A DNA stretch of 13,819 nt from Thermoproteota archaeon. GTDB lineage: Archaea; Korarchaeota; Korarchaeia; B14-G2. This document shows positions 1,328 to 12,807 of this stretch, in pieces. The stretch covers positions 1-13,819 of the forward strand of contig JAVCBW010000038.1 in assembly GCA_037917675.1 (NCBI GenBank). Direction: 5' to 3'. The number at the start of each line of letters is the position of its first letter. The stretch's first letter is position 1. The translations under genes were made by a program, and so were the position numbers. A model generated the notes under the pieces. That model was not told the origin of the DNA and did no database searches. It was given only the letters and a program-made list of their open reading frames with translations.

Positions 1328-2095
1328 CTGACCTTAGACAAGACTACACTGCTGCTCTTCTCTGCTGCAAGCTCTCTGGTAGTCCTCTTCCTCCTTGCTC
1401 CTCTGGTGCTTACAGCTGTGACAGCAGACTATCGGCTTGTAGCTAGCTCAGTAGCTAGGAGGGAGGTTATGGAGTCCTTCGCCAACACGCTTGTGGCAGC
1501 ATCTCTATCAACTCTGCTTCTGGTAGCAGTAGGTGTCCCTCTGGCATACCTCCTGGCTAGATGCCAGTTCAAGGGGAGGCAGCTTGTGGAGGCCATAGTA
1601 GACCTCCCCTTAGCTCTGCCACATGCTGTAGCAGGAGTCCTGGTGATAGTAGCCTATGGGTCTAGAGCTCCTATAGGCTCACTGCTAGCTCAAGCTGGCT
1701 TAGCAATAGAAGACAGGCTAGCTGGAGTGGTCTTAGCGATGGCCTATGTTTCAGCTCCGTTCCTAATAGACTCAGCTAAAGACGGCTTCAAGTCCATAGA
1801 CCCTATGCTAGAGCATGTAGCCAGGACTCTAGGTGCAACACCTCTCAAGGTGTTTGCTTACATAAGCCTCCCTCTAGCTTGGAGGGGCATAGCTACTGGA
1901 GCTCTCCTGAGCTGGGCTAGAGCAATAAGCGAGGTTGGGGCCTTGCTCATTGTAGCATACTACCCGAAGACAGTGAACATCCTGGTAATAGAGTGGTTTA
2001 ACACCTATGGGCTAGCTTATGCGAAGGCCTTGACCATACCACTGCTAGCTCTATGCATACTAGTGTTCACCTTGATAAGGCTATCAGAGAGGTGA
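1328..2095 (+). CDS. modB: Molybdate/tungstate ABC transporter permease (ModB/WtpB)
   Basis: Motifs DLPLALPHAVAG, MAYVSAPF, EAA-like loop EHVARTLGA, LSWARAISEVGA, AYYP. The frame extends upstream of 1406 through a hydrophobic TM1 to a CTG at 1328 preceded by a GGTGGTG RBS. Confidence 0.92.
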   Translation: MTLDKTTLLLFSAASSLVVLFLLAPLVLTAVTADYRLVASSVARREVMESFANTLVAASLSTLLLVAVGVPLAYLLARCQFKGRQLVEAIVDLPLALPHAVAGVLVIVAYGSRAPIGSLLAQAGLAIEDRLAGVVLAMAYVSAPFLIDSAKDGFKSIDPMLEHVARTLGATPLKVFAYISLPLAWRGIATGALLSWARAISEVGALLIVAYYPKTVNILVIEWFNTYGLAYAKALTIPLLALCILVFTLIRLSER

Positions 2096-2099
2096 GAGC

Positions 2100-3158
2100 T
2101 TGATTAGGATAGAGGATCTCACCTTAGAACTAGGGGAGTTCAAGCTAGACGACATAACCCTAGAGGCTAGAGCAGGAGAGTACATGGTTGTAATGGGCCC
2201 AAGTGGAGCAGGGAAAACCCTGCTGCTCCACACGATAGCAGGAATATATAGGCCATCTAGAGGGAGAGTGTTCATAGCTGGCCGAGATGTGACAGCTGAC
2301 CCCCCAGAGAAGCGGCGTGTAGCTCTTGTTCCACAAGACTATGCGCTCTTCCCCCACATGACAGCATATGAGAACATAGCATTTGGCCTCATTCAGAGGA
2401 AGCTTCCTAGAGGCGAGGTAGATCAGAGGGTGAAGGACATAGCTGAGGTCCTTGGTGTCAAGCATCTCCTCCACAGGAAGCCAGCTACACTGAGTGGGGG
2501 AGAGCAGCAGAGGATAGCCTTAGCTAGAGCACTAGTCACTGACCCAGATGTGCTGCTGCTAGATGAGCCTACAGCAGCTCTAGACCCACCTCTGAGGGCA
2601 GAAGCTAGAAGGTACCTGAAGCAGCTACATGCAGAGCTAGAGTTCACAGCAGTACATGTCACACACAGCTTCACAGAGGCAGCTGAGCTAGCTGACAGAA
2701 TAGCTTTCATGAGGGAAGGCCGCATACTCCAGGCTGGAACCCTAGAGGAGATCCTCTATGCTCCAGCATCCCCCAAGATAGCAGAGTTCACAGGAGACAT
2801 AAACGCTTACAGGGCTAGGATGGTAGCTGACTTGGGGGGGCAAGCTGAAGTTGAGGTGGAAGGCATAAGGCTTAGAGCAGTCAAGGCACCAGGAGCACAG
2901 AGCAGAGGCATACTGGTCGTGAGGCCAGAAGACATCATAGTCTCAAGAGAGAAGCCAAGAGGCTTGAGTGCAAGGAACATGCTGCAGGCACGAGTAGAGG
3001 AAGTAGCTCAGAAGGGCCCCCTCTACCTGGTGTCCTCTAAGGCAGGCCAAATCAATGTCAAAGCCTACCTGACGAGGGCTTCGCTAGAGGAGCTGGAGGT
3101 AAAGCCAGGAGCCATGGTCTATCTCACATTCAAGGTGAGCAGCACAGTATACAGGTGA
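2100..3158 (+). CDS. modC: Molybdate/tungstate ABC transporter ATP-binding subunit with C-terminal TOBE regulatory domain (ModC/WtpC)
   Basis: Walker A GPSGAGKT, signature LSGGEQQR, Walker B LLLDEP, VTH switch, C-terminal SARN oxyanion-binding motif. AGGTGA RBS precedes the TTG. Confidence 0.93.
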   Translation: MIRIEDLTLELGEFKLDDITLEARAGEYMVVMGPSGAGKTLLLHTIAGIYRPSRGRVFIAGRDVTADPPEKRRVALVPQDYALFPHMTAYENIAFGLIQRKLPRGEVDQRVKDIAEVLGVKHLLHRKPATLSGGEQQRIALARALVTDPDVLLLDEPTAALDPPLRAEARRYLKQLHAELEFTAVHVTHSFTEAAELADRIAFMREGRILQAGTLEEILYAPASPKIAEFTGDINAYRARMVADLGGQAEVEVEGIRLRAVKAPGAQSRGILVVRPEDIIVSREKPRGLSARNMLQARVEEVAQKGPLYLVSSKAGQINVKAYLTRASLEELEVKPGAMVYLTFKVSSTVYR

Positions 3159-3160
3159 AG

Positions 3161-3994
3161 CTACCTCCTAAGCCTCACCTCTACCATGTGGTACCTGAAG
3201 CCAAGCCTCTCAGATGGCACGCCAGCTGCCAAAGCTAGGAGCTGAGTCAGGTAGAGGACTGGCAGCCTCCTGCTCCAGCCTCTCTGAGCTAGCTCAAGCT
3301 GCCTGAAGCAGGTTGGGCACACAACAACCATGCACTCTGCACCAGCATCCAGTGCGTTACTAAGCTTAAGCCTAGCCTGCTCGAGTGAAAGCTCTCTATC
3401 AGCCCTCCACACATAGTAGGCGCAGCAGAGCTCCTCACCCTCATAGGAGACTGGCTCAGCTCCTGCAGCTGAGACAAGCTCCCTGAGAGCCCTAGGGCTC
3501 TTTACATCATCATACTCAGGGAGCTCCTCATAGATGTGGCATCCCAGGTGGGTTGCAGCCTTCACCTCAACAGGCCTCTCGACAGCAGCCTTCACACCAT
3601 CCACTCCAACCTCCTCGTATAGCAGCCTGAGTATGCTCTCCACCCTAGCCCCCCCGCTATAGCTCCTGCCTACCGCACTCAGGTACCTGTTCACCTCCTC
3701 CCTCTTCTCTTCGCTTCCAAGCTCCCTCCAAGCTGAAAGCAAGCTCTTAGTGCACCCGCTGCACAGCGAGACCAGCTCTAGGCCAGCCTCCTCTGCGAGC
3801 GAGAGGTTTCTAGCTGCTAGCACAAGCCAGCTAACCTTGTCTAGGAGCTGCATGGACGATGGCTCAGGGCAGCATGAGAACCCGCTTAAGCTCACAGCCT
3901 CAATCCCAAGCTTCTCCAGCAGAAGCCTGGTAGCAGCCTCGAACTGTGGGTACCTAGCTGAGATCACACAGCCAGGGAAGATAAGCTTCCTCAT
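3161..3994 (-). CDS. hdrB: Heterodisulfide reductase subunit B-like protein (two CCG domains)
   Basis: Two complete non-cubane [4Fe-4S] motifs: C9, C41-C42, C78-x2-C81 and C152(H153), C190-C191, C226-x2-C229. AARNL motif present. ATGA overlap with the upstream gene. Confidence 0.9.
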   Translation of the reverse strand: MRKLIFPGCVISARYPQFEAATRLLLEKLGIEAVSLSGFSCCPEPSSMQLLDKVSWLVLAARNLSLAEEAGLELVSLCSGCTKSLLSAWRELGSEEKREEVNRYLSAVGRSYSGGARVESILRLLYEEVGVDGVKAAVERPVEVKAATHLGCHIYEELPEYDDVKSPRALRELVSAAGAEPVSYEGEELCCAYYVWRADRELSLEQARLKLSNALDAGAECMVVVCPTCFRQLELAQRGWSRRLPVLYLTQLLALAAGVPSERLGFRYHMVEVRLRR

Positions 3995-4773
3995 CTTCCC
4001 ACCCTCCTCAAGAGCCCAGTTTCCTCAAGAAGCCTCTTGACCTCCCCAGCACCGAAGTCTACCTCCTCAGCTAGCCCAAGCTCCCTCCTCCTTCGAGCTG
4101 AGGCTGTGGTGAACGGGATCCCACAGCCACTTTCAGCAACTGACCTCACAATCCCACTGAACATCTCCAGTATCCCTCTAAACCTATCGAGTGCAGCTGG
4201 CTTGAACTCAGGCTCAGCTTCAGCTCCCCTCGCGAGCCTCAGTAGCAGAGCAGGCTCCCTGACTTCAGCTGGAGGCTCCACCACGACACCAAGCTGGAGA
4301 GCTAGCCCACTAGCCACCATGAGAGCAGCTTCACGTGCAGCCTCCTCTTCGCTTCTAAACCTGAGTGCTCCAGTTGGGCATGCCTCGACACAGGCTGGTG
4401 GAAGCCCATCCTCTAGCCTACTAGGACACCTATCACACTTCAAGACGCCACCATCTCCAGGTGAGACAGCTGCAAATGGGCAGACCATCATACAAGACCT
4501 ACAGCCTATGCATAGCTCCCTATCGTACTCTACTATGTCACCAGCTCTCTTGAGAGCTCCAGTAGGACACACGACTACACACGGAGGGCTATCACAGTGC
4601 ATGCAGAGCACTGGGAGAGGGAGCATAGCTACAGGAACAACCTTGATCCTAGGCTTCACACGCTCAAGCATAGCTGAAGCAAGGCTTTTACCAGGAGAGT
4701 GCTCTACTGCGCAAGCTATCTCACAGCTCCTGCAGCCAGTACACCTCCATGGGTCTACATAAAGCATCTGCAC
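3991..4773 (-). CDS. CooF/DmsB-type 4x[4Fe-4S] polyferredoxin fused to an HdrC-like C-terminal tail
   Basis: 16 Cys in four cluster motifs; paralog of 5078-5686. The tail GIVRSVAESGCGIPF...RRRRELGL...EVKRLLEETGL resembles the HdrC C-terminus. Start placed at GTG 4773 (GGTGG RBS at 4780-4784) rather than 4827. Confidence 0.85.
   Translation of the reverse strand: MQMLYVDPWRCTGCRSCEIACAVEHSPGKSLASAMLERVKPRIKVVPVAMLPLPVLCMHCDSPPCVVVCPTGALKRAGDIVEYDRELCIGCRSCMMVCPFAAVSPGDGGVLKCDRCPSRLEDGLPPACVEACPTGALRFRSEEEAAREAALMVASGLALQLGVVVEPPAEVREPALLLRLARGAEAEPEFKPAALDRFRGILEMFSGIVRSVAESGCGIPFTTASARRRRELGLAEEVDFGAGEVKRLLEETGLLRRVGR
4358..4405 (-). repeat. Outer inverted repeat, copy 1 (48 bp; pairs with 5479-5526)
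   Basis: Reverse complement matches 5479-5526 at 47/48; encodes LPPACVEACPTGALRF. Confidence 0.95.
4697..4729 (-). repeat. Inner inverted repeat, copy 1 (33 bp; pairs with 5143-5175)
   Basis: Reverse complement GAGCTGTGAGATAGCTTGCGCAGTAGAGCACTC is identical to 5143-5175. Confidence 0.95.
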
Positions 4774-5010
4774 ATGAAGCCACCAACCCCCTATTCTGCC
4801 AAGCTTAATAACACTTATCTGCCACATGGCTCATAGCTTTAGACAAGAGCAGCGCTGCAAATCAGCCTGCACCTAGCAAGATGCCTCCGTTGCTGCTAGT
4901 AGCTTAACAGGTTTATCCCCACTTGCATCTGGGTGCTATGCTGATGGCAGTCTAAGCCCACTGCACTGGTGTCACATTTCTACAAAAAGTAACACTATCA
5001 GCTGACTTGG

Positions 5011-5077: not shown

Positions 5078-5686
5078 TTGCCTGAGAGCATATCTCCTGA
5101 GTACCTGATATACATCGACTCATCTAGGTGTGTTGCATGCAAGAGCTGTGAGATAGCTTGCGCAGTAGAGCACTCCGAGTCGAAAACGCTTATTTCAGCT
5201 ATATTCGAGGCTCCTAAGCCTAGGCCTAGGGTCAAGGTCGTTGTAGCAGCTACACTCACGGTTCCAATAAGATGCATGCACTGTGATCCAGCACCATGCA
5301 TAGAGGTCTGTCCGACAAAGGCCATGTATAGGGTAGAAGAAGGATATGTGCTATCTGACCCAGTTAAGTGTATAGGGTGTAGGGCATGCCTGATAGCATG
5401 TCCATTCGGCCACCCAGCTTACAGCCGTGAGCTTAAGGTCATAAAGTGTGACCACTGTATAGAGAGGCTCAGACAAGAGCTTCCACCAGCCTGTGTCGAG
5501 GCATGCCCGACTGGAGCACTCAGGTTCGGTAGAGCTGAGGAGCTTCTCCTTGAGGTCAAGGAGAAGAAGGCTGCTGAGCTGGTCACCGGGGTTGTGAGCC
5601 CAGGTGTGGCTTACGCTAAGCCACCTGAGAAGCCCTCCCCCCTATCTATGATTAAGGAGATGTATGAGCCTGTGAGGTGGACTTAG
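5078..5686 (+). CDS. cooF: CO dehydrogenase-associated iron-sulfur protein CooF (4x[4Fe-4S])
   Basis: 16 Cys: CxxCxxCxxxC, CxxCx4CxxxCP, CxxCxxCxxxCP, CxxC..CxxxCP. The stop codon directly abuts the cooS ATG. Confidence 0.9.
   Translation: MPESISPEYLIYIDSSRCVACKSCEIACAVEHSESKTLISAIFEAPKPRPRVKVVVAATLTVPIRCMHCDPAPCIEVCPTKAMYRVEEGYVLSDPVKCIGCRACLIACPFGHPAYSRELKVIKCDHCIERLRQELPPACVEACPTGALRFGRAEELLLEVKEKKAAELVTGVVSPGVAYAKPPEKPSPLSMIKEMYEPVRWT
5143..5175 (+). repeat. Inner inverted repeat, copy 2 (33 bp)
   Basis: 33/33 identical to the reverse complement of 4697-4729; encodes SCEIACAVEHS. Confidence 0.95.
5479..5526 (+). repeat. Outer inverted repeat, copy 2 (48 bp)
   Basis: 47/48 identical to the reverse complement of 4358-4405; the single mismatch at 5509 is synonymous. 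Confidence 0.95.
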
Positions 5687-7615
5687 ATGGCTGCTGAAAG
5701 GATCTATGAGAGGCTCATGAAGGTCTCTCGAAGAGAGTTCTATGAGGGAGTCTCGATAGACCCTACTGTAGCCCCCCTCCTTGAGAAAGCTGAGAGAGAT
5801 AAGGTTGAGATAGCCTGGCATAGGTATCTGGCTCAGCAGCCTCAGTGTGGCTTCGGCCTACTTGGGGTATGCTGTAGGAACTGCAACATGGGCCCATGTA
5901 GGATAGATCCATTTGGATACGGCCCCTCCAAGGGGACGTGTGGAGCTACAGCAGACACCATAGTAGCTAGGAACCTCATGAGAGCTCTTGCAGCTGGAGC
6001 AGCAGCACACAGCGACCATGCTCGTGACATAGTTAAGGTCTTCAAGGGGATCCCAGAGGGCTGGGCTAAGGGATATACGATAAAGGACGAGGAGAAGCTG
6101 AGGAATGTGGCGAGGAGCCTAGGCATACAGGTTGAGGGCAGGGATGTCAAGGAGATAGCTCTAGATGTTGCCAAGATCCTTGAGATGGAGTTCGGGAAGC
6201 CAGGGGAAGACCCGCTTAAGCTGGCTGAAGCTCTAGCTCCAGAGAGGAGGAAGCGGGTCTGGAGGAAGATAGGGATAATGCCTAGGGCGATAGACAGGGA
6301 GGTGACAGAGATAATGCACAGGACACATATGGGAGTTGATGCAGATCCACTCAGCCTGATAGCTCAGGGGCTGAGGTGCGCCTTGGCAGATGGCTGGAGC
6401 GGCTCAATGATGGCTACGCTGCTAAGTGACATAATGTTCGGGACTCCAAAGCCTCTGAGGTCAGCAGCAAACCTAGGGGTTCTCAGGGAGAAGGCAGTCA
6501 ACATACTCGTACACGGGCACAACCCTGTGCTCTCCATGAAGATAGCTGAGGCAGCAGAGGACCCTGAGCTAGTGGAGCTAGCGAGGAAGCTGGGTGCAGA
6601 GGAGGGGATAAACGTAGTAGGCATGTGCTGCACAGGAAACGAGGTTCTCATGAGGCTTGGGATCCCGGTAGCAGGGAACATGCTCCAGCAGGAGCTAGCT
6701 ATAGTAACGGGAGCACTAGAAGCTGTTGTAGTAGACTACCAGTGTATAATGCCAGCTATAGTAGACGTGGCATCATGCTACCACACTAAGGTCATCACAA
6801 CAGAGCCTAAGGCACACATCCCTGGTGCAGTGCACATAGAGTTCGAGCCAGAGCATGCAGACGAGGTGGCGAAGAAGATAGTCAGGGTGGCAGTAGAGAA
6901 CTTCCCCAATAGGGTGAAGGAGAAGGTGCAGATACCTGAGGAGAAGATGGAGCTGACAGCAGGGTTCAGCGTGGAAGCCATACTAGAGGCTCTAGGTGGG
7001 ACGCTGGAGCCTCTAGCAAAAGCCCTGAAGGAGGGCAAGATAAAGGGTATAGCTGGTGTGGTAGGCTGTGTCAACCCTAAGGTAAGGCATGAGTACAGCC
7101 ATGTAACACTGACAAAGGAGCTCATAAAGAATGACATACTCGTCGTAGGGACAGGCTGCTGGGCTATAACAATGGGTAAGCATGGCCTGCTGAGGCCTGA
7201 AGCAGCTGAGCTAGCAGGCCCAGGCCTAAGGGAGATATGCAAAGCTCTAGGAGTACCGCCATGCCTACACATGGGGAGCTGTGTAGACTGCTCAAGGATG
7301 CTCATAGCTCTAGGCGCGCTAGCAGACTACCTCGGAGTAGACATATCAGACTTACCGGCAGCAGGGTCAGCTCCAGAGTGGATGAGTGAGAAGGCAGTCT
7401 CAATAGGCGCCTACTTCGTGGCTACAGGGCTCCTAGTACACTTAGGCACAATACCACCAGTCCTAGGGAGCAAAGCTGTAGTAGAGATACTTACAAGCAA
7501 GGCAGAAGAGCTGGTAGGAGGAAAGTTCTACGTGGAGCCAGATCCAGTGAAGGCAGCACAGACCCTGATAGCACACATAAGGGAGAAGAGGAAGAAGCTA
7601 GGCTGGCCAGAGTAG
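5687..7615 (+). CDS. cooS: Anaerobic Ni,Fe carbon monoxide dehydrogenase catalytic subunit
   Basis: D/B-cluster QCGFGLLGVCCRNCNMGPC..TCGA; HSDH; C-cluster ligands HGHNP, MCCTGNE, DYQC, VVGC, TGC, MGSCVD; catalytic Lys in WMSEKA. Confidence 0.97.
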   Translation: MAAERIYERLMKVSRREFYEGVSIDPTVAPLLEKAERDKVEIAWHRYLAQQPQCGFGLLGVCCRNCNMGPCRIDPFGYGPSKGTCGATADTIVARNLMRALAAGAAAHSDHARDIVKVFKGIPEGWAKGYTIKDEEKLRNVARSLGIQVEGRDVKEIALDVAKILEMEFGKPGEDPLKLAEALAPERRKRVWRKIGIMPRAIDREVTEIMHRTHMGVDADPLSLIAQGLRCALADGWSGSMMATLLSDIMFGTPKPLRSAANLGVLREKAVNILVHGHNPVLSMKIAEAAEDPELVELARKLGAEEGINVVGMCCTGNEVLMRLGIPVAGNMLQQELAIVTGALEAVVVDYQCIMPAIVDVASCYHTKVITTEPKAHIPGAVHIEFEPEHADEVAKKIVRVAVENFPNRVKEKVQIPEEKMELTAGFSVEAILEALGGTLEPLAKALKEGKIKGIAGVVGCVNPKVRHEYSHVTLTKELIKNDILVVGTGCWAITMGKHGLLRPEAAELAGPGLREICKALGVPPCLHMGSCVDCSRMLIALGALADYLGVDISDLPAAGSAPEWMSEKAVSIGAYFVATGLLVHLGTIPPVLGSKAVVEILTSKAEELVGGKFYVEPDPVKAAQTLIAHIREKRKKLGWPE

Positions 7616-9313: not shown

Positions 9314-11089
9314 ATGGGGGTGTTAGGGTCTAGCTTGAAAGGTAGGCTTCTGGTAGCTGTCCTCTTGACGCTTCTTGCTCTAGCGCCTCTAGCTGGTAGG
9401 AGGGTAGCTAGCAGAGGAGAGCACCTACCCTTCTCACTATACCACATTACTCCACTGAATAGGATCCTTTACCCTAGAGTTGCTGCGCCAGCTTTCTGTG
9501 AGGCTGGGGGGGCTCTGACAGTGTACGTTGGCTACATTGAGGGCGAAAAGCCTGCTAAGAGCACTGAGTGGAGCGGCAGCTTGGAGTCTATCCTCTATGG
9601 GAGCTATGAGCTAGAGAAGCTAGAGCAGAGCTTTGATGAGAGAGGCTTCTGGAGGATAGAGTTCAGGGTCCCTGATGAAGCTGAGGGCCTCTACAACCTG
9701 ACGCTTAGAGCTGAGGGCATGGTGTTCACTGAGCCAAACTGCATCAAGGTGTATAGGGAGTTTCCTAGCGAGCTCAGAGCTGGGGTGCTTACTGATAACC
9801 ACGTTGGCTTGAGGAGGCAGCTGAGATACAAGGTGAATAATGAGGTGTTTGAGGTTGTGCTTGCTACACTAGACTCCCTAGGCTTAGACCTGATAGTAGA
9901 CTGTGGTGACATCGTTGACGCTACAGCAGATGAGGAGCCATATAGGTATGTCTATGAGCTGATATCCCAGCTAGCTACGCCAATACTCTTCACAATGGGC
10001 AACAACGACTACTACACTATTGAAAAGGGGAGGTGGTGGTGGGAGAAGTACTTTACTCCACTGAGATGGAGTACGACGATAGGAAGATACCACTTCATCT
10101 CTCTAGACACAGATACAGGGAGAGTGACAGATGAGGCCTTGAGCTGGCTAGAGGAGGACATGGCTCTCAATAGGGACAAGAAGATAGTGCTCTTCTTCCA
10201 CTACCCATACTGGGATCCAAACCAGATATCACCTAACGCATATGAGAAGCTGCCTAAGCTCATAGAGGAGCATAATGTCATCCTAGTTCTGCTAGGGCAT
10301 AGGCACATAGATGAGGTCAGGAAGCCACCTGAGCTCCCTGCTCTGACAATAACAACTACAGCTACAGCAGCATCTCAGAGGTATCGTGGCTACCGCCTGC
10401 TCACCATCAAGAGTGAGCATGTAGAGTATACGCCTGAGAGCACACCCTATGAGAAGCTTGGAGTGAAGCTCCTCCAGAGGAGGGATGGAAGCTCAACAGG
10501 GGTGGCAGCCAAGGTGTGGAACAAGCTGGGTGAGCCAGCTACTCTAAGGATCCTAGTGAGGCTCAAGCCAGGACCACTTAAAGCTGAGGGAGCTGAAGCA
10601 AAGGCCGCGAGGGAGTCTAGGGGTGCTCTAGCTGCAGCTCTGGAGGTGAGCCTGCCACCAGGCTCAGAGAAGGTCATCAAAGCCTATACTATGGAGGACA
10701 AGGCTCCACCTAAAGTTGAGGTGCACCCTGATGAAGCTGAAGACTACATTTCACTAGACTACACTGCATCAGACATAGGCCTCGGTGTGCTAGAGGTTAC
10801 TGTGTACTACAGCCATGACAACAAGACATGGAATAGAGCTCAGGTTAAGGTTGTAGACGAATACCCTCTGCCGACAGCTCCGAAGGCTGAGAGAGTCTAC
10901 TATAAGGCTGAGGCAGTGGATGCAGCTGGAAACAAGGCTGTAGCATACGGGGTGTATGAGGCTAAGCCGCCGGCAGCTACATCGGAGATAGAGGAGAGGA
11001 AGGTGGCTCCAGCTTTAGGGCTTGTAGGTGCTGTTGTGGCTGCTGCAGCTATAGCTGTAGTCTTAGTCTTATGGAGGATGAGAAGGTGA
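9314..11089 (+). CDS. Secreted, C-terminally anchored calcineurin-like metallophosphoesterase (variant GNND motif)
   Basis: Signal peptide; motifs TDNH, CGD, GNND, FHYP, GHRH; beta-rich flanking domains; C-terminal TM helix plus RMRR. Confidence 0.85.
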   Translation: MGVLGSSLKGRLLVAVLLTLLALAPLAGRRVASRGEHLPFSLYHITPLNRILYPRVAAPAFCEAGGALTVYVGYIEGEKPAKSTEWSGSLESILYGSYELEKLEQSFDERGFWRIEFRVPDEAEGLYNLTLRAEGMVFTEPNCIKVYREFPSELRAGVLTDNHVGLRRQLRYKVNNEVFEVVLATLDSLGLDLIVDCGDIVDATADEEPYRYVYELISQLATPILFTMGNNDYYTIEKGRWWWEKYFTPLRWSTTIGRYHFISLDTDTGRVTDEALSWLEEDMALNRDKKIVLFFHYPYWDPNQISPNAYEKLPKLIEEHNVILVLLGHRHIDEVRKPPELPALTITTTATAASQRYRGYRLLTIKSEHVEYTPESTPYEKLGVKLLQRRDGSSTGVAAKVWNKLGEPATLRILVRLKPGPLKAEGAEAKAARESRGALAAALEVSLPPGSEKVIKAYTMEDKAPPKVEVHPDEAEDYISLDYTASDIGLGVLEVTVYYSHDNKTWNRAQVKVVDEYPLPTAPKAERVYYKAEAVDAAGNKAVAYGVYEAKPPAATSEIEERKVAPALGLVGAVVAAAAIAVVLVLWRMRR

Positions 11090-12807
11090 AGGCTAAGGTT
11101 GCAGTGCTCCTAGCAATCACCTTCATGTCCATTCTCGCAGTGAGCTGCCAGCCAGCTACTCCACTCAACAAGGTGTGGTGGCCTAGGCTAGGTTTCCCTG
11201 CTTTCGTGAAGCCGGGTGGCAACATAACCGTGGAGCTAGCTAGCATAGAGCCCCAGGCAATATACCTGGTCAACGAAACCCATAGGCTCAAGCTCAAAGT
11301 GAAGTCGAAGCATAGAGATGGCTGGCTGGCTAAGGCTGTAGCTGAGGTCCCAGTGGAGGCAGGTGAAGGCCTCTATAACCTTAGTGTGCTAGCTAGCAAT
11401 GGAGCATTCGAGGAGCCCCACTCAGTCTACGTCTATAAGGCCACTAGGATTCCATTCACCATATTCTGGATAACTGACACACACTATGATGTCAAGCCTG
11501 GAGCAGAGTACCTTAGGCTCATATTCAGGAAGTGGATTAGGATAGCAAACTTCCTGAAGCCAGACCTCATCGTCGTCACTGGGGACATCGTAAACAACCC
11601 GCCGGAGCACCTCTTTAAGTCAGTTTACAGAGAGCTACTAGAGCTAGAGGTTCCAGTCCTCTTGGTCCCAGGGAACCATGACTGGTCTAAGGAGGGATAC
11701 TTCATAAGGTACCTGTCTGTCTCAAACCGCTCTCTCACGATAGACTGGATCCACCTGGTTGCCCTAGACACGGGGCCAGGAGGCTTTCACGGCTGGCTCA
11801 CCGAGGAGCAGATGGACTGGCTAGAAGAGGACTTAGCTGCTCACAGTGGGTGCCCAGTTAAGCTGCTGCTCATGCATCACCCACTCTACCACATTGAGAA
11901 CAGGACTGGAGCAAGCTTGATGAGGCTAGCTGACATAGCTAGGAGATATAATGTTAGCTTGATCCTATCAGGGCACTCTCATGTCAACAAGGACATTATG
12001 GAGCCAGTACACTACCTGGTTGGGACAAGTGGCTTCAAGGGAGGGAAGCCTTACTCTGGCTTCTACCTCCTGAAGCTCACTCCACAGGGAGTAGACTACA
12101 AGATAAATGGCACATACAAGCCCATACCACACAGGGACTTCGAAGTCAAGCCTCTACAGAGGAACGCTGGTGAGAAGCCTGCTATAGCAGTCTATCTGAG
12201 GAACAGCTGGTGGTTCCCAGTCAAAGGCTACCTGAAGCTTAGGCTGAAGAAAGCTGGGAGGCAGCTTGAAGTAGAGGGAGGCAAGCTCACATCTCAGGTC
12301 AACGCTGGAAGCTACATGATAGCTGAGGTTGAGGTGAGGCTCAAGCCAGGAGAAGAGAAGCTGGTGAAAGCATGCTATGCTCAAGCACAGGACAGGCAGC
12401 CGCCCAAAGTGGTCGATGTAGGCTACAAGATCAGAGAGAGCCTGGCTGTAGCCATAGCAACCCTCACGATAACAGTAGAGGACGACTACCTCGGAGTTAG
12501 AGACGTGACAGTAGCCTACACAACAGATAACAAGACGTGGTCAGCTATGAAGCCAGTCTACATCTCACCAGACACCTACCAGGCAGTGATACAGGTACAA
12601 AAAGGCCCACCATACCTGACAGTAAAGGTGAGAGCAGAAGACCTAACTGGAAAGACTACAGAGAAAGCCATCACAATAAAGCTGCCAAAGCCACCAGAAG
12701 AGCAGAAGCCAGAAGAGAAGACCCCTCTAACGATAGTAGCCATAGCTACAGCTATGGCCGTAGCTATAGTAGCCATAGCCCTATACCTGGTAAGGAGGAG
12801 GCCATAA
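11086..12807 (+). CDS. Secreted, C-terminally anchored calcineurin-like metallophosphoesterase
   Basis: Signal peptide; motifs TDTH, TGD, GNHD, MHHP, GHSH; Pro/Glu/Lys linker, TM helix, RRR. Likely start GTG 11086 (GTGA overlap, GGAGG at 11073-11077); ATG 11071 is the alternative. Confidence 0.88.
   Translation: MKAKVAVLLAITFMSILAVSCQPATPLNKVWWPRLGFPAFVKPGGNITVELASIEPQAIYLVNETHRLKLKVKSKHRDGWLAKAVAEVPVEAGEGLYNLSVLASNGAFEEPHSVYVYKATRIPFTIFWITDTHYDVKPGAEYLRLIFRKWIRIANFLKPDLIVVTGDIVNNPPEHLFKSVYRELLELEVPVLLVPGNHDWSKEGYFIRYLSVSNRSLTIDWIHLVALDTGPGGFHGWLTEEQMDWLEEDLAAHSGCPVKLLLMHHPLYHIENRTGASLMRLADIARRYNVSLILSGHSHVNKDIMEPVHYLVGTSGFKGGKPYSGFYLLKLTPQGVDYKINGTYKPIPHRDFEVKPLQRNAGEKPAIAVYLRNSWWFPVKGYLKLRLKKAGRQLEVEGGKLTSQVNAGSYMIAEVEVRLKPGEEKLVKACYAQAQDRQPPKVVDVGYKIRESLAVAIATLTITVEDDYLGVRDVTVAYTTDNKTWSAMKPVYISPDTYQAVIQVQKGPPYLTVKVRAEDLTGKTTEKAITIKLPKPPEEQKPEEKTPLTIVAIATAMAVAIVAIALYLVRRRP

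Follow-up and report, generated by a model that had tools for sequence, protein, structure and literature searches.

A CooF-type polyferredoxin with an HdrC-type C-terminal arm, encoded beside cooF-cooS in a korarchaeal genome

We have identified, in a contig assigned to a Thermoproteota archaeon of the class Korarchaeia, a gene encoding a CooF-type polyferredoxin that ends in the C-terminal arm of HdrC. The sequence under study (here, the window) is the whole 13.8-kb contig JAVCBW010000038.1 (13,819 nucleotides), and the genome to which it belongs is 92.7% complete. The fusion is real, and it appears to be a rare and previously undescribed form among the Hdr and CODH modules. Its product belongs to the CooF family but ends in a foreign segment, and is not an HdrC when judged by its ferredoxin domain. 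As a working model, we suggest that the chimera may be an HdrC substitute that wires CODH to HdrB without HdrA or bifurcation, a proposal for which we consider the case to be evenly poised.

Organization of the locus

The chimeric gene and hdrB are transcribed divergently (head-to-head) from cooF-cooS, and the features on which the argument draws are:

3161-3994, minus strand: divergent HdrB of 277 aa with two CCG domains (ten cluster cysteines and His153; E87S, K/R156E, and CCG192 to CCAYY).
3991-4773, minus strand: chimeric gene (260 aa) for a CooF-type polyferredoxin with an HdrC C-terminal arm, assigned from core identity, an HdrC-tail profile and the orthologue P0003/L056.
3994-4200, minus strand: HdrC C-terminal arm, residues 192-260 (profile match to residues 204-258, at 4000-4164; predicted HdrB-binding surface, residues 197-258).
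4201-4230, minus strand: short junction, residues 182-191, between the CooF-like and HdrC-like matches; coil in the model.
4231-4353, minus strand: CooF-type C-terminal helices, residues 141-181 (CooF C-terminal profile, 15-17 bits; low-confidence model).
4354-4773, minus strand: four-[4Fe-4S] core of CooF/HycB type, residues 1-140 (Pfam Fer4_11; 16 cysteines).
4969-4995, no strand: inverted repeat (7-13-7) conserved in both loci, a candidate shared operator.
5078-5686, plus strand: ordinary cooF, 202 aa, grouping with cooS-adjacent CooFs of related genomes.
5687-7615, plus strand: cooS, the Ni-CODH catalytic subunit, 642 aa (TIGR01702, 749.8 bits; cut-off 478).

The chimeric ORF starts with GTG, with GGTGG six bases 5' of it, and its stop overlaps the hdrB start as ATGA in the window and as GTGA in L056. 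Motifs that we take to provide the cluster ligands are present in the cooS product, and a scan of the window ORFs recognized no further redox genes. The inverted repeat recurs at positions 1258-1284 of L056 within an intergenic region that has otherwise diverged, and a pattern built from these two sites has one exact match in the genome and one in L056. We regard the repeat as a candidate operator common to both divergent operons. A sigma-70 promoter scan of the sequence found nothing, the sigma-70 model being irrelevant to an archaeon. A 241-aa opposite-strand ORF (4037-4762) is unsupported as a real gene, the selection pattern fitting the minus frame. Elsewhere in the window, genes for an ABC permease and ATPase (1406-3158), presumably of the molybdate/tungstate type as judged by eye, end two bases from the hdrB stop and are the same neighbour in L056, and two overlapping tandem genes (9314-12807) encode calcineurin-like phosphoesterases of ~580 aa that seem to have signal segments and, at the C-terminus, membrane segments.

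Reality and distribution of the fusion

The junction in the chimera is not an assembly artefact because L056 has the same architecture and because single contigs of two public runs span it. The orthologue at L056 (P0003) is 87-88% identical, and the order of cooS, cooF, chimera and hdrB is the same. Window positions 3000-4386 are covered by single contigs with zero differences in the two runs, either of which may be the source of the window. Nei-Gojobori dN/dS values from this one pair of loci are 0.10 for the core, 0.26 for residues 141-190, 0.12 for hdrB and 0.10 for cooF; the tail, at 0.24, evolves under purifying selection.

A search for the same domain architecture, which the initial annotation had proposed, returned P0003/L056 as one further locus with the same order relative to cooF-cooS. 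The architecture was found only at these two related loci, both divergent from cooF-cooS: no other holders were seen among the best 120 of 520 matches, among 80 metagenome loci (L056 aside), in 41-43 related genomes, or among the best 150 of 284 matches obtained from 1.84 billion representatives. A long match at another locus (L114) is an unrelated protein. In relatives, an ORF of ~370 aa occupies the place of the chimera upstream of cooF. The same-genus genome G004 carries no information on this point because its cooS is truncated by a contig end.

Eight further hdrB loci of the phylum (L229-L236), considered as candidate chimeras, instead have short HdrCs without the arm. Such proteins (~123-143 aa, with one called at 180) are encoded upstream of hdrB at these loci and at L044 and L055, and their existence implies that arm and ferredoxin domain are separable modules. 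Other unusual arrangements of hdrC were also seen. One protein of 442 aa (L163, 1595-2923) has a whole HdrC at its C-terminus, preceded by what we take, by eye, to be a receiver domain and a glycine-cleavage H-type domain. HdrC and HdrB are joined in one open frame at L159 (992-3835), where the arm continues straight into HdrB. A broken hdrC fragment in genome G006 (L051, 1540-1764) retains one cluster motif and a partial arm; it has an in-frame stop inside the match, and hdrB was not seen nearby.

The tail as an HdrC C-terminal arm

The initial annotation recognized a resemblance between the last ~65 residues and the C-terminus of HdrC. When the tail was searched by itself, Pfam, NCBIfam and the PDB sequences gave zero matches; the ESM Atlas returned no usable match to residues 140-260 and is uninformative, and a word search for additional HdrC tails recovered the query alone. 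A narrow profile of eight tail sequences, five of them near-identical rows with an insertion, also missed the chimera. The misses in Pfam, NCBIfam and the PDB and that of the narrow profile would fit a likeness that arose by chance or convergence, or a tail that repeats the C-terminal helices of CooF, as would the behaviour of MAFFT, which in mixed alignments set the HdrC tails against the end of CooF itself and thereby caused us to discard a composite CooF and HdrC-tail alignment. We regard this explanation as highly improbable and as already largely refuted by broader profiles. For the first of these, 80 GTDB HdrC loci were fetched and 79 used (a copy of the seed was left out); four of the 79 tails were discarded for length, and the remaining 75 do not include the chimera. 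This independent profile gives the chimera tail 19.1 bits and that of the orthologue 18.6 bits, whereas the reversed tail scores -1.3 bits and none of 5000 shuffles exceeds 8.7 bits. Among 6119 ORFs, the chimera obtains an E-value of 0.003 and ranks above one true divergent HdrC; with a 91-tail profile, the E-value is 1.5e-5. The profile comparison suggested for the last ~70 residues, made with hhalign, was likewise significant (probability 85-92.5%, E 6e-6 to 5e-7), and the best pairwise score between the tail and HdrC is 81, compared to at most 51 in 300 shuffles. Moreover, a profile of CooF C-termini gives the tail -2 bits, which excludes a repeat of the CooF C-terminus; the HdrC-tail profile has no match in 266 other CooF-like proteins, and the tail is encoded directly upstream of hdrB.

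When the 70-aa tail was searched against 43 genomes of the phylum, only two other ORFs were found (E 1.3e-4 and 4.8e-3 per genome), both of them at the C-termini of two-cluster proteins in the order hdrA-hdrC-hdrB. In its own genome, two ordinary HdrCs take the first and fourth ranks among 6118 ORFs without reaching significance. The tail contains the helical arm motif G...R..LGL...EV..I...TG, with retention of Gly-216 (present in 89 of 91 HdrC tails) and of Arg-229 and Leu-234 (each in 91 of 91). A model of residues 185-260, computed with 30 HdrC tails in the alignment, has a pLDDT of 90, and the top seven PDB matches in Foldseek are all HdrC chains (TM 0.59-0.65, rmsd 1.6-2.3 Å over ~60 residues, E 0.025-0.22), the next being an unrelated match with a probability of 0.07. 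VIA-align also places two HdrC chains first among 48,161 (Z 6.9 and 5.8, rmsd 5.5 Å over 76 residues), a Z range that the tool calls common. These fold results are partly circular because the alignment held HdrC tails; the shuffle test is not. On the strength of the profile matches, we conclude that the tail (residues ~192-260) is a real HdrC C-terminal arm. One residue departs from the family: Cys-217 (window 4123-4125), which is kept in both copies and lies within the predicted HdrB interface, is cysteine in none of 91 HdrC tails, 68 of which have arginine.

As the initial annotation also held, the two-cluster domain of HdrC itself is absent. A profile of the HdrC core does not match the chimeric ORF, and none of the 11 TIGR03290 matches listed in the genome falls on its contig. 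The N-terminal two-[4Fe-4S] domain that defines HdrC is missing, therefore, from a gene that occupies the HdrC position beside hdrB. Efforts to trace the arm showed that the likeness of the tail to individual hdrCB loci goes together with that of HdrB (Spearman 0.36 for 83 of 91 loci; 0.50 for a thinned set of 25). No donor locus can be named, because two of five control HdrBs were correlated as well (0.60 and 0.45).

The CooF-type core and the junction

The four-cluster core of ~140 aa, which had been described as a paralogue of the neighbouring CooF, has four cluster motifs within residues 11-132, made up of 16 cysteines that are all invariant in a 40-sequence CooF alignment, and a HycB/NrfC-type fold characteristic of CooF. 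It is 53.9% identical to the adjacent CooF over 141 aa (47% over 185 aa), so that their relatedness is borne out. The nearest relatives are cooS-linked polyferredoxins, and cooS itself adjoins the locus, in divergent rather than common orientation. A whole-protein AlphaFold model, for which the alignment covered mainly the core, is poor (pLDDT 63); Foldseek matches to this low-confidence model are of HycB type, and HdrC is absent among the rows listed.

Less of the linker survives as it was first described. Its Ala/Pro/Glu-rich composition is confirmed (28 of the 55 residues at 141-195 are Ala, Glu or Pro), but most of it is CooF's own C-terminal segment: residues 133-~175 score 15-17 bits against a profile built from 86 CooF C-termini, partly through the common motif TGALRF, and helices at residues 142-160 and 169-181 are predicted in the low-confidence whole-protein model. 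Because of this match, the true junction is placed at residues ~182-191. Judged from sequence comparison, the chimera is a nearly whole CooF (residues 1-~181), a junction of about ten residues and an HdrC arm.

Identity to the core is much the same (47-54%) for every CODH-linked CooF of the class. In a tree of 52 rows, from which three long rows of the original 55 had been omitted, it occupies a long branch of its own outside the supported clade formed by the adjacent CooF and the cooS-linked CooFs of relatives; forcing core and adjacent CooF to be sisters in these 52 rows costs 16 log units (p-AU 0.052). The duplication of the neighbouring cooF that the initial annotation proposed as the origin of the core is neither rejected nor established by this value. 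The terminal motif MY..V.W, present in the neighbouring CooF and in 19 of 118 CooF-like matches, is absent from the chimera. These observations would suit an HdrC substitute that draws on another donor, serving as a general ferredoxin:disulfide oxidoreductase supplied by a soluble ferredoxin or another enzyme, with cooF-cooS a mere neighbour. CooF/HycB-type proteins serve many enzymes, and one hdrA in the genome, located beside cdh genes without adjoining hdrBC, exemplifies such a donor. The closest relatives of the chimera are, however, CODH-linked CooFs; the head-to-head order and the inverted repeat are maintained in both loci, and wiring from HdrA to HdrB, as outlined in PMC5861303, uses the HdrC clusters that are missing here. 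We consider a donor other than CODH to be rather unlikely, though it deserves to be kept in mind.

The HdrB partner and predicted docking

The adjacent HdrB has two CCG domains, the ten cluster cysteines and the catalytic histidine (His-153, equivalent to His-154 in PDB 5ODC). Its score of 221.8 bits is below the TIGR03288 cut-off of 345 bits, and the glycine-rich loop after the second CC and Glu-87 are missing. Position 87 is serine in both copies (glutamate in 67 of 92 others), position 156 is glutamate (lysine or arginine in 38 of 38 others), and both copies have CCAYY where 90 of 92 others have CCG (Gly-192). In a quick tree of 94 rows of HdrC-linked HdrBs, the branch of this protein is long (1.63 changes per column) and has no supported sister. 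Glu-87 and His-154 of HdrB, together with Tyr-81 of HdrC, have been proposed as a proton path in the solved Hdr, as far as this is set out in PMC13518236. Glu-87 is lost here, and its proposed partner Tyr-81 belongs to the missing HdrC domain. Since the active-site pocket is altered, catalysis or substrate may differ.

Such changes raise the idea that the complex forms but that HdrB has given up the reduction of small-molecule disulfides and has become a relay, an SdhE-like anchor or a sulfur-carrier enzyme in which the CooF wire ends. The long branch, the score below the cut-off, the three substitutions and the failure to find mcrA or comA in the 92.7% complete genome are all consistent with this. 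All ten cysteines and His-153 are nevertheless kept, the HdrB score exceeds that for SdhE (221.8 versus 133.1 bits), and two ordinary HdrBs of the genome also fall under the TIGR03288 cut-off. Loss of reductase function is unlikely in our view. Of the four HdrB genes in the genome, only that linked to the chimera has no ordinary hdrC upstream.

Complex prediction for the tail and HdrB gives a score of 0.73, as compared to 0.01 for the best control; this mark is attained in 116 of 157 solved complexes, against two of 215 mismatched pairs. At least 96% of contacts recur between runs, and the partner pLDDT is at least 75. The alignments included 30 tails from true HdrCs as well as 39 further HdrBs, and the HdrBC structure has been solved, so that prior exposure of the predictor to it may contribute; for these reasons, the result shows likeness and compatibility rather than binding. 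With that qualification, the anticipated contact between arm and adjacent HdrB is predicted, and the two features on which the initial annotation had staked its proposal, similarity of the tail to HdrC and predicted contact with HdrB, are both present.

The predicted arm contacts involve HdrB residues 9-62, 104-110, 197-199 and 263-268, mostly in the N-terminal CCG domain. A ligand of the proximal cluster is Cys-234 according to the part of 10.64898/2026.08.25.746951 available to us. We assign this cluster to the C-terminal domain, away from most of the predicted arm interface, and it would therefore be reached by something other than the arm, presumably the CooF core. The same geometry could be taken to mean that the arm is a tether only, which holds HdrB or competes with ordinary HdrC with no electron flow from core to HdrB, and that a ferredoxin domain of HdrC, encoded elsewhere, might operate in trans. 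The short arm-less HdrCs of relatives (8 of 8 loci fetched) fit this idea in that the modules are separable. A stand-alone arm-less HdrC was not found in the 92.7% complete genome, however, and the sixteen core cysteines and ten HdrB cysteines are under purifying selection. We judge a pure tether to be very unlikely.

Genomic context of the Hdr system

The genome encodes Fwd, Ftr, Mer and CdhA-E, three hdrC-hdrB pairs, three hdrA genes and three [NiFe]-hydrogenase large-subunit frames. On one contig (G000 C54), a single hdrA2 is flanked by two diverging hdrC-hdrB pairs beside fwdDBA and ftr (L216, 4665-13920), and an hdrA2-like gene and one for a FwdF-like polyferredoxin are located directly upstream of cdhA-E without adjoining hdrB or hdrC (L217, 7152-10887). 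For Korarchaeia with the Wood-Ljungdahl pathway, the sections of PMC10667645 available to us call the role of Hdr without Mcr unclear and suggest that other disulfides may be used.

A model for CO-driven disulfide reduction

In the reading that we prefer, the chimera substitutes for HdrC between CODH and HdrB. The HdrC arm, whose homology is established, is predicted to clamp onto the co-translated HdrB, and the four-cluster CooF core would replace the two-cluster domain of HdrC as the wire into the non-cubane clusters. Gene order and family suggest that CO oxidation at CooS would supply the electrons, directly or via the ordinary CooF, and that CooF and the chimera might form an eight-cluster tandem resembling HycB3/HycB4 of HDCR. 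The outcome would be a CO:disulfide oxidoreductase that does not bifurcate and leaves HdrA out of the path; with no flavin present, reduction of the disulfide by CO would be plain. The disulfide is probably not CoM-S-S-CoB. Direct reduction of a disulfide by CO would waste ~380 mV, a point against the model. The system might be an electron sink or a thiol-regenerating branch under CO that conserves no energy itself. Thiol-driven CO2 reduction is ruled out by the potentials because a bifurcating flavin is lacking. The gene may have originated when a member of the cooF family was fused into the 3' part of an hdrC that was paired with hdrB.

Substitution for HdrC is favoured by the homology, predicted fold and predicted docking of the arm, by the position of the gene, by the lack of an ordinary hdrC upstream of this hdrB, by retention of the 16 core and ten HdrB cysteines at low dN/dS, by the common gene order of both loci, and by the loss of Glu-87 from HdrB alongside that of the domain bearing Tyr-81. 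Against it, the CODH link comes from two related, non-independent loci; MY..V.W is absent, the core falls outside the group of the neighbouring CooF and the HdrB pocket is altered; and the predicted arm interface is mostly on the N-terminal CCG domain of HdrB, with a pLDDT of 63 for the whole protein. The fuller claim, that an undescribed CooS-CooF-chimera-HdrB complex couples CO oxidation directly to the reduction of a disulfide other than CoM-S-S-CoB while bypassing both HdrA and the HdrC ferredoxin domain, is possible but on the doubtful side.

Relation to known systems and significance

The chimera resembles HdrC of HdrABC (PDB 5ODC, 7BKB and 8RVU; TIGR03290) in its arm, by profile and predicted fold, in its position upstream of hdrB and in its predicted HdrB binding. 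It differs in having the four-cluster CooF core in place of the two-cluster domain, and hence no equivalents of Thr-79, Tyr-81 and Tyr-84, in the lack of hdrA at the locus and in the presence of Cys-217. Electrons in HdrABC pass from the HdrA flavin to HdrC and on to HdrB, in the outline given by PMC6019823 and PMC5861303. With CooF of monofunctional Ni-CODH clusters (CODH/ECH and CODH/FNOR, as covered in part by PMC6344411), the chimera shares the four-cluster core, the following helix and a location beside cooF-cooS; unlike these proteins, it is a second CooF-type copy with opposite transcription and an HdrC-arm end, and HdrB, in place of a hydrogenase or FNOR, is its presumed sink. The gene contexts summarized in PMC6344411 place CooF with ECH or FNOR, and Hdr-like genes with Wood-Ljungdahl CODH/ACS clusters.

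HycB3/HycB4 of HDCR (PDB 7QV7) and the AorA nanowire subunits belong to the same fold family, as judged by Foldseek with the low-confidence whole model. In HDCR and AOR, polyferredoxins are paired and C-terminal helices set the partners, according to the summary in 10.1101/2023.01.23.525143; the partner-binding end of the chimera, by contrast, is borrowed from an unrelated protein, and filaments are not indicated. HdrD, DsrK, TfrB, SdhE/F and other modules of HdrBC type likewise couple a CCG non-cubane module to a donor other than HdrA. In HdrD, DsrK and TfrB, an HdrC-like two-cluster domain precedes the CCG domains, whereas in the chimera-HdrB pair it has been replaced. DsrK is described as homologous to HdrBC in the available portion of 10.64898/2026.08.25.746951. 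We found no description of a CooF core joined to an HdrC arm in titles and the openings of abstracts, a search that stops short of most subscription papers and of supplements such as the context tables of PMC6344411.

Known soluble HdrBs are fed via the two clusters of HdrC, and the known outputs of CooF are hydrogenases or FNOR. The locus appears to link the CODH and Hdr systems through a domain swap and so offers a test of whether a ferredoxin foreign to HdrB can serve as its wire. Although its occurrence at two related loci limits its reach, the arrangement, if the model is true, would make the HdrC arm a portable docking module that plugs HdrB into a new donor. It would also open the way, through a flavin-free assay, to the true substrate of HdrB in archaea that lack Mcr, since CO-driven turnover of the chimera-HdrB pair, having no bifurcating flavin, would be a simple screen of disulfides. 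The finding bears in this way on the role of heterodisulfide reductases in archaea without Mcr, a matter raised in the sections of PMC10667645 cited above.
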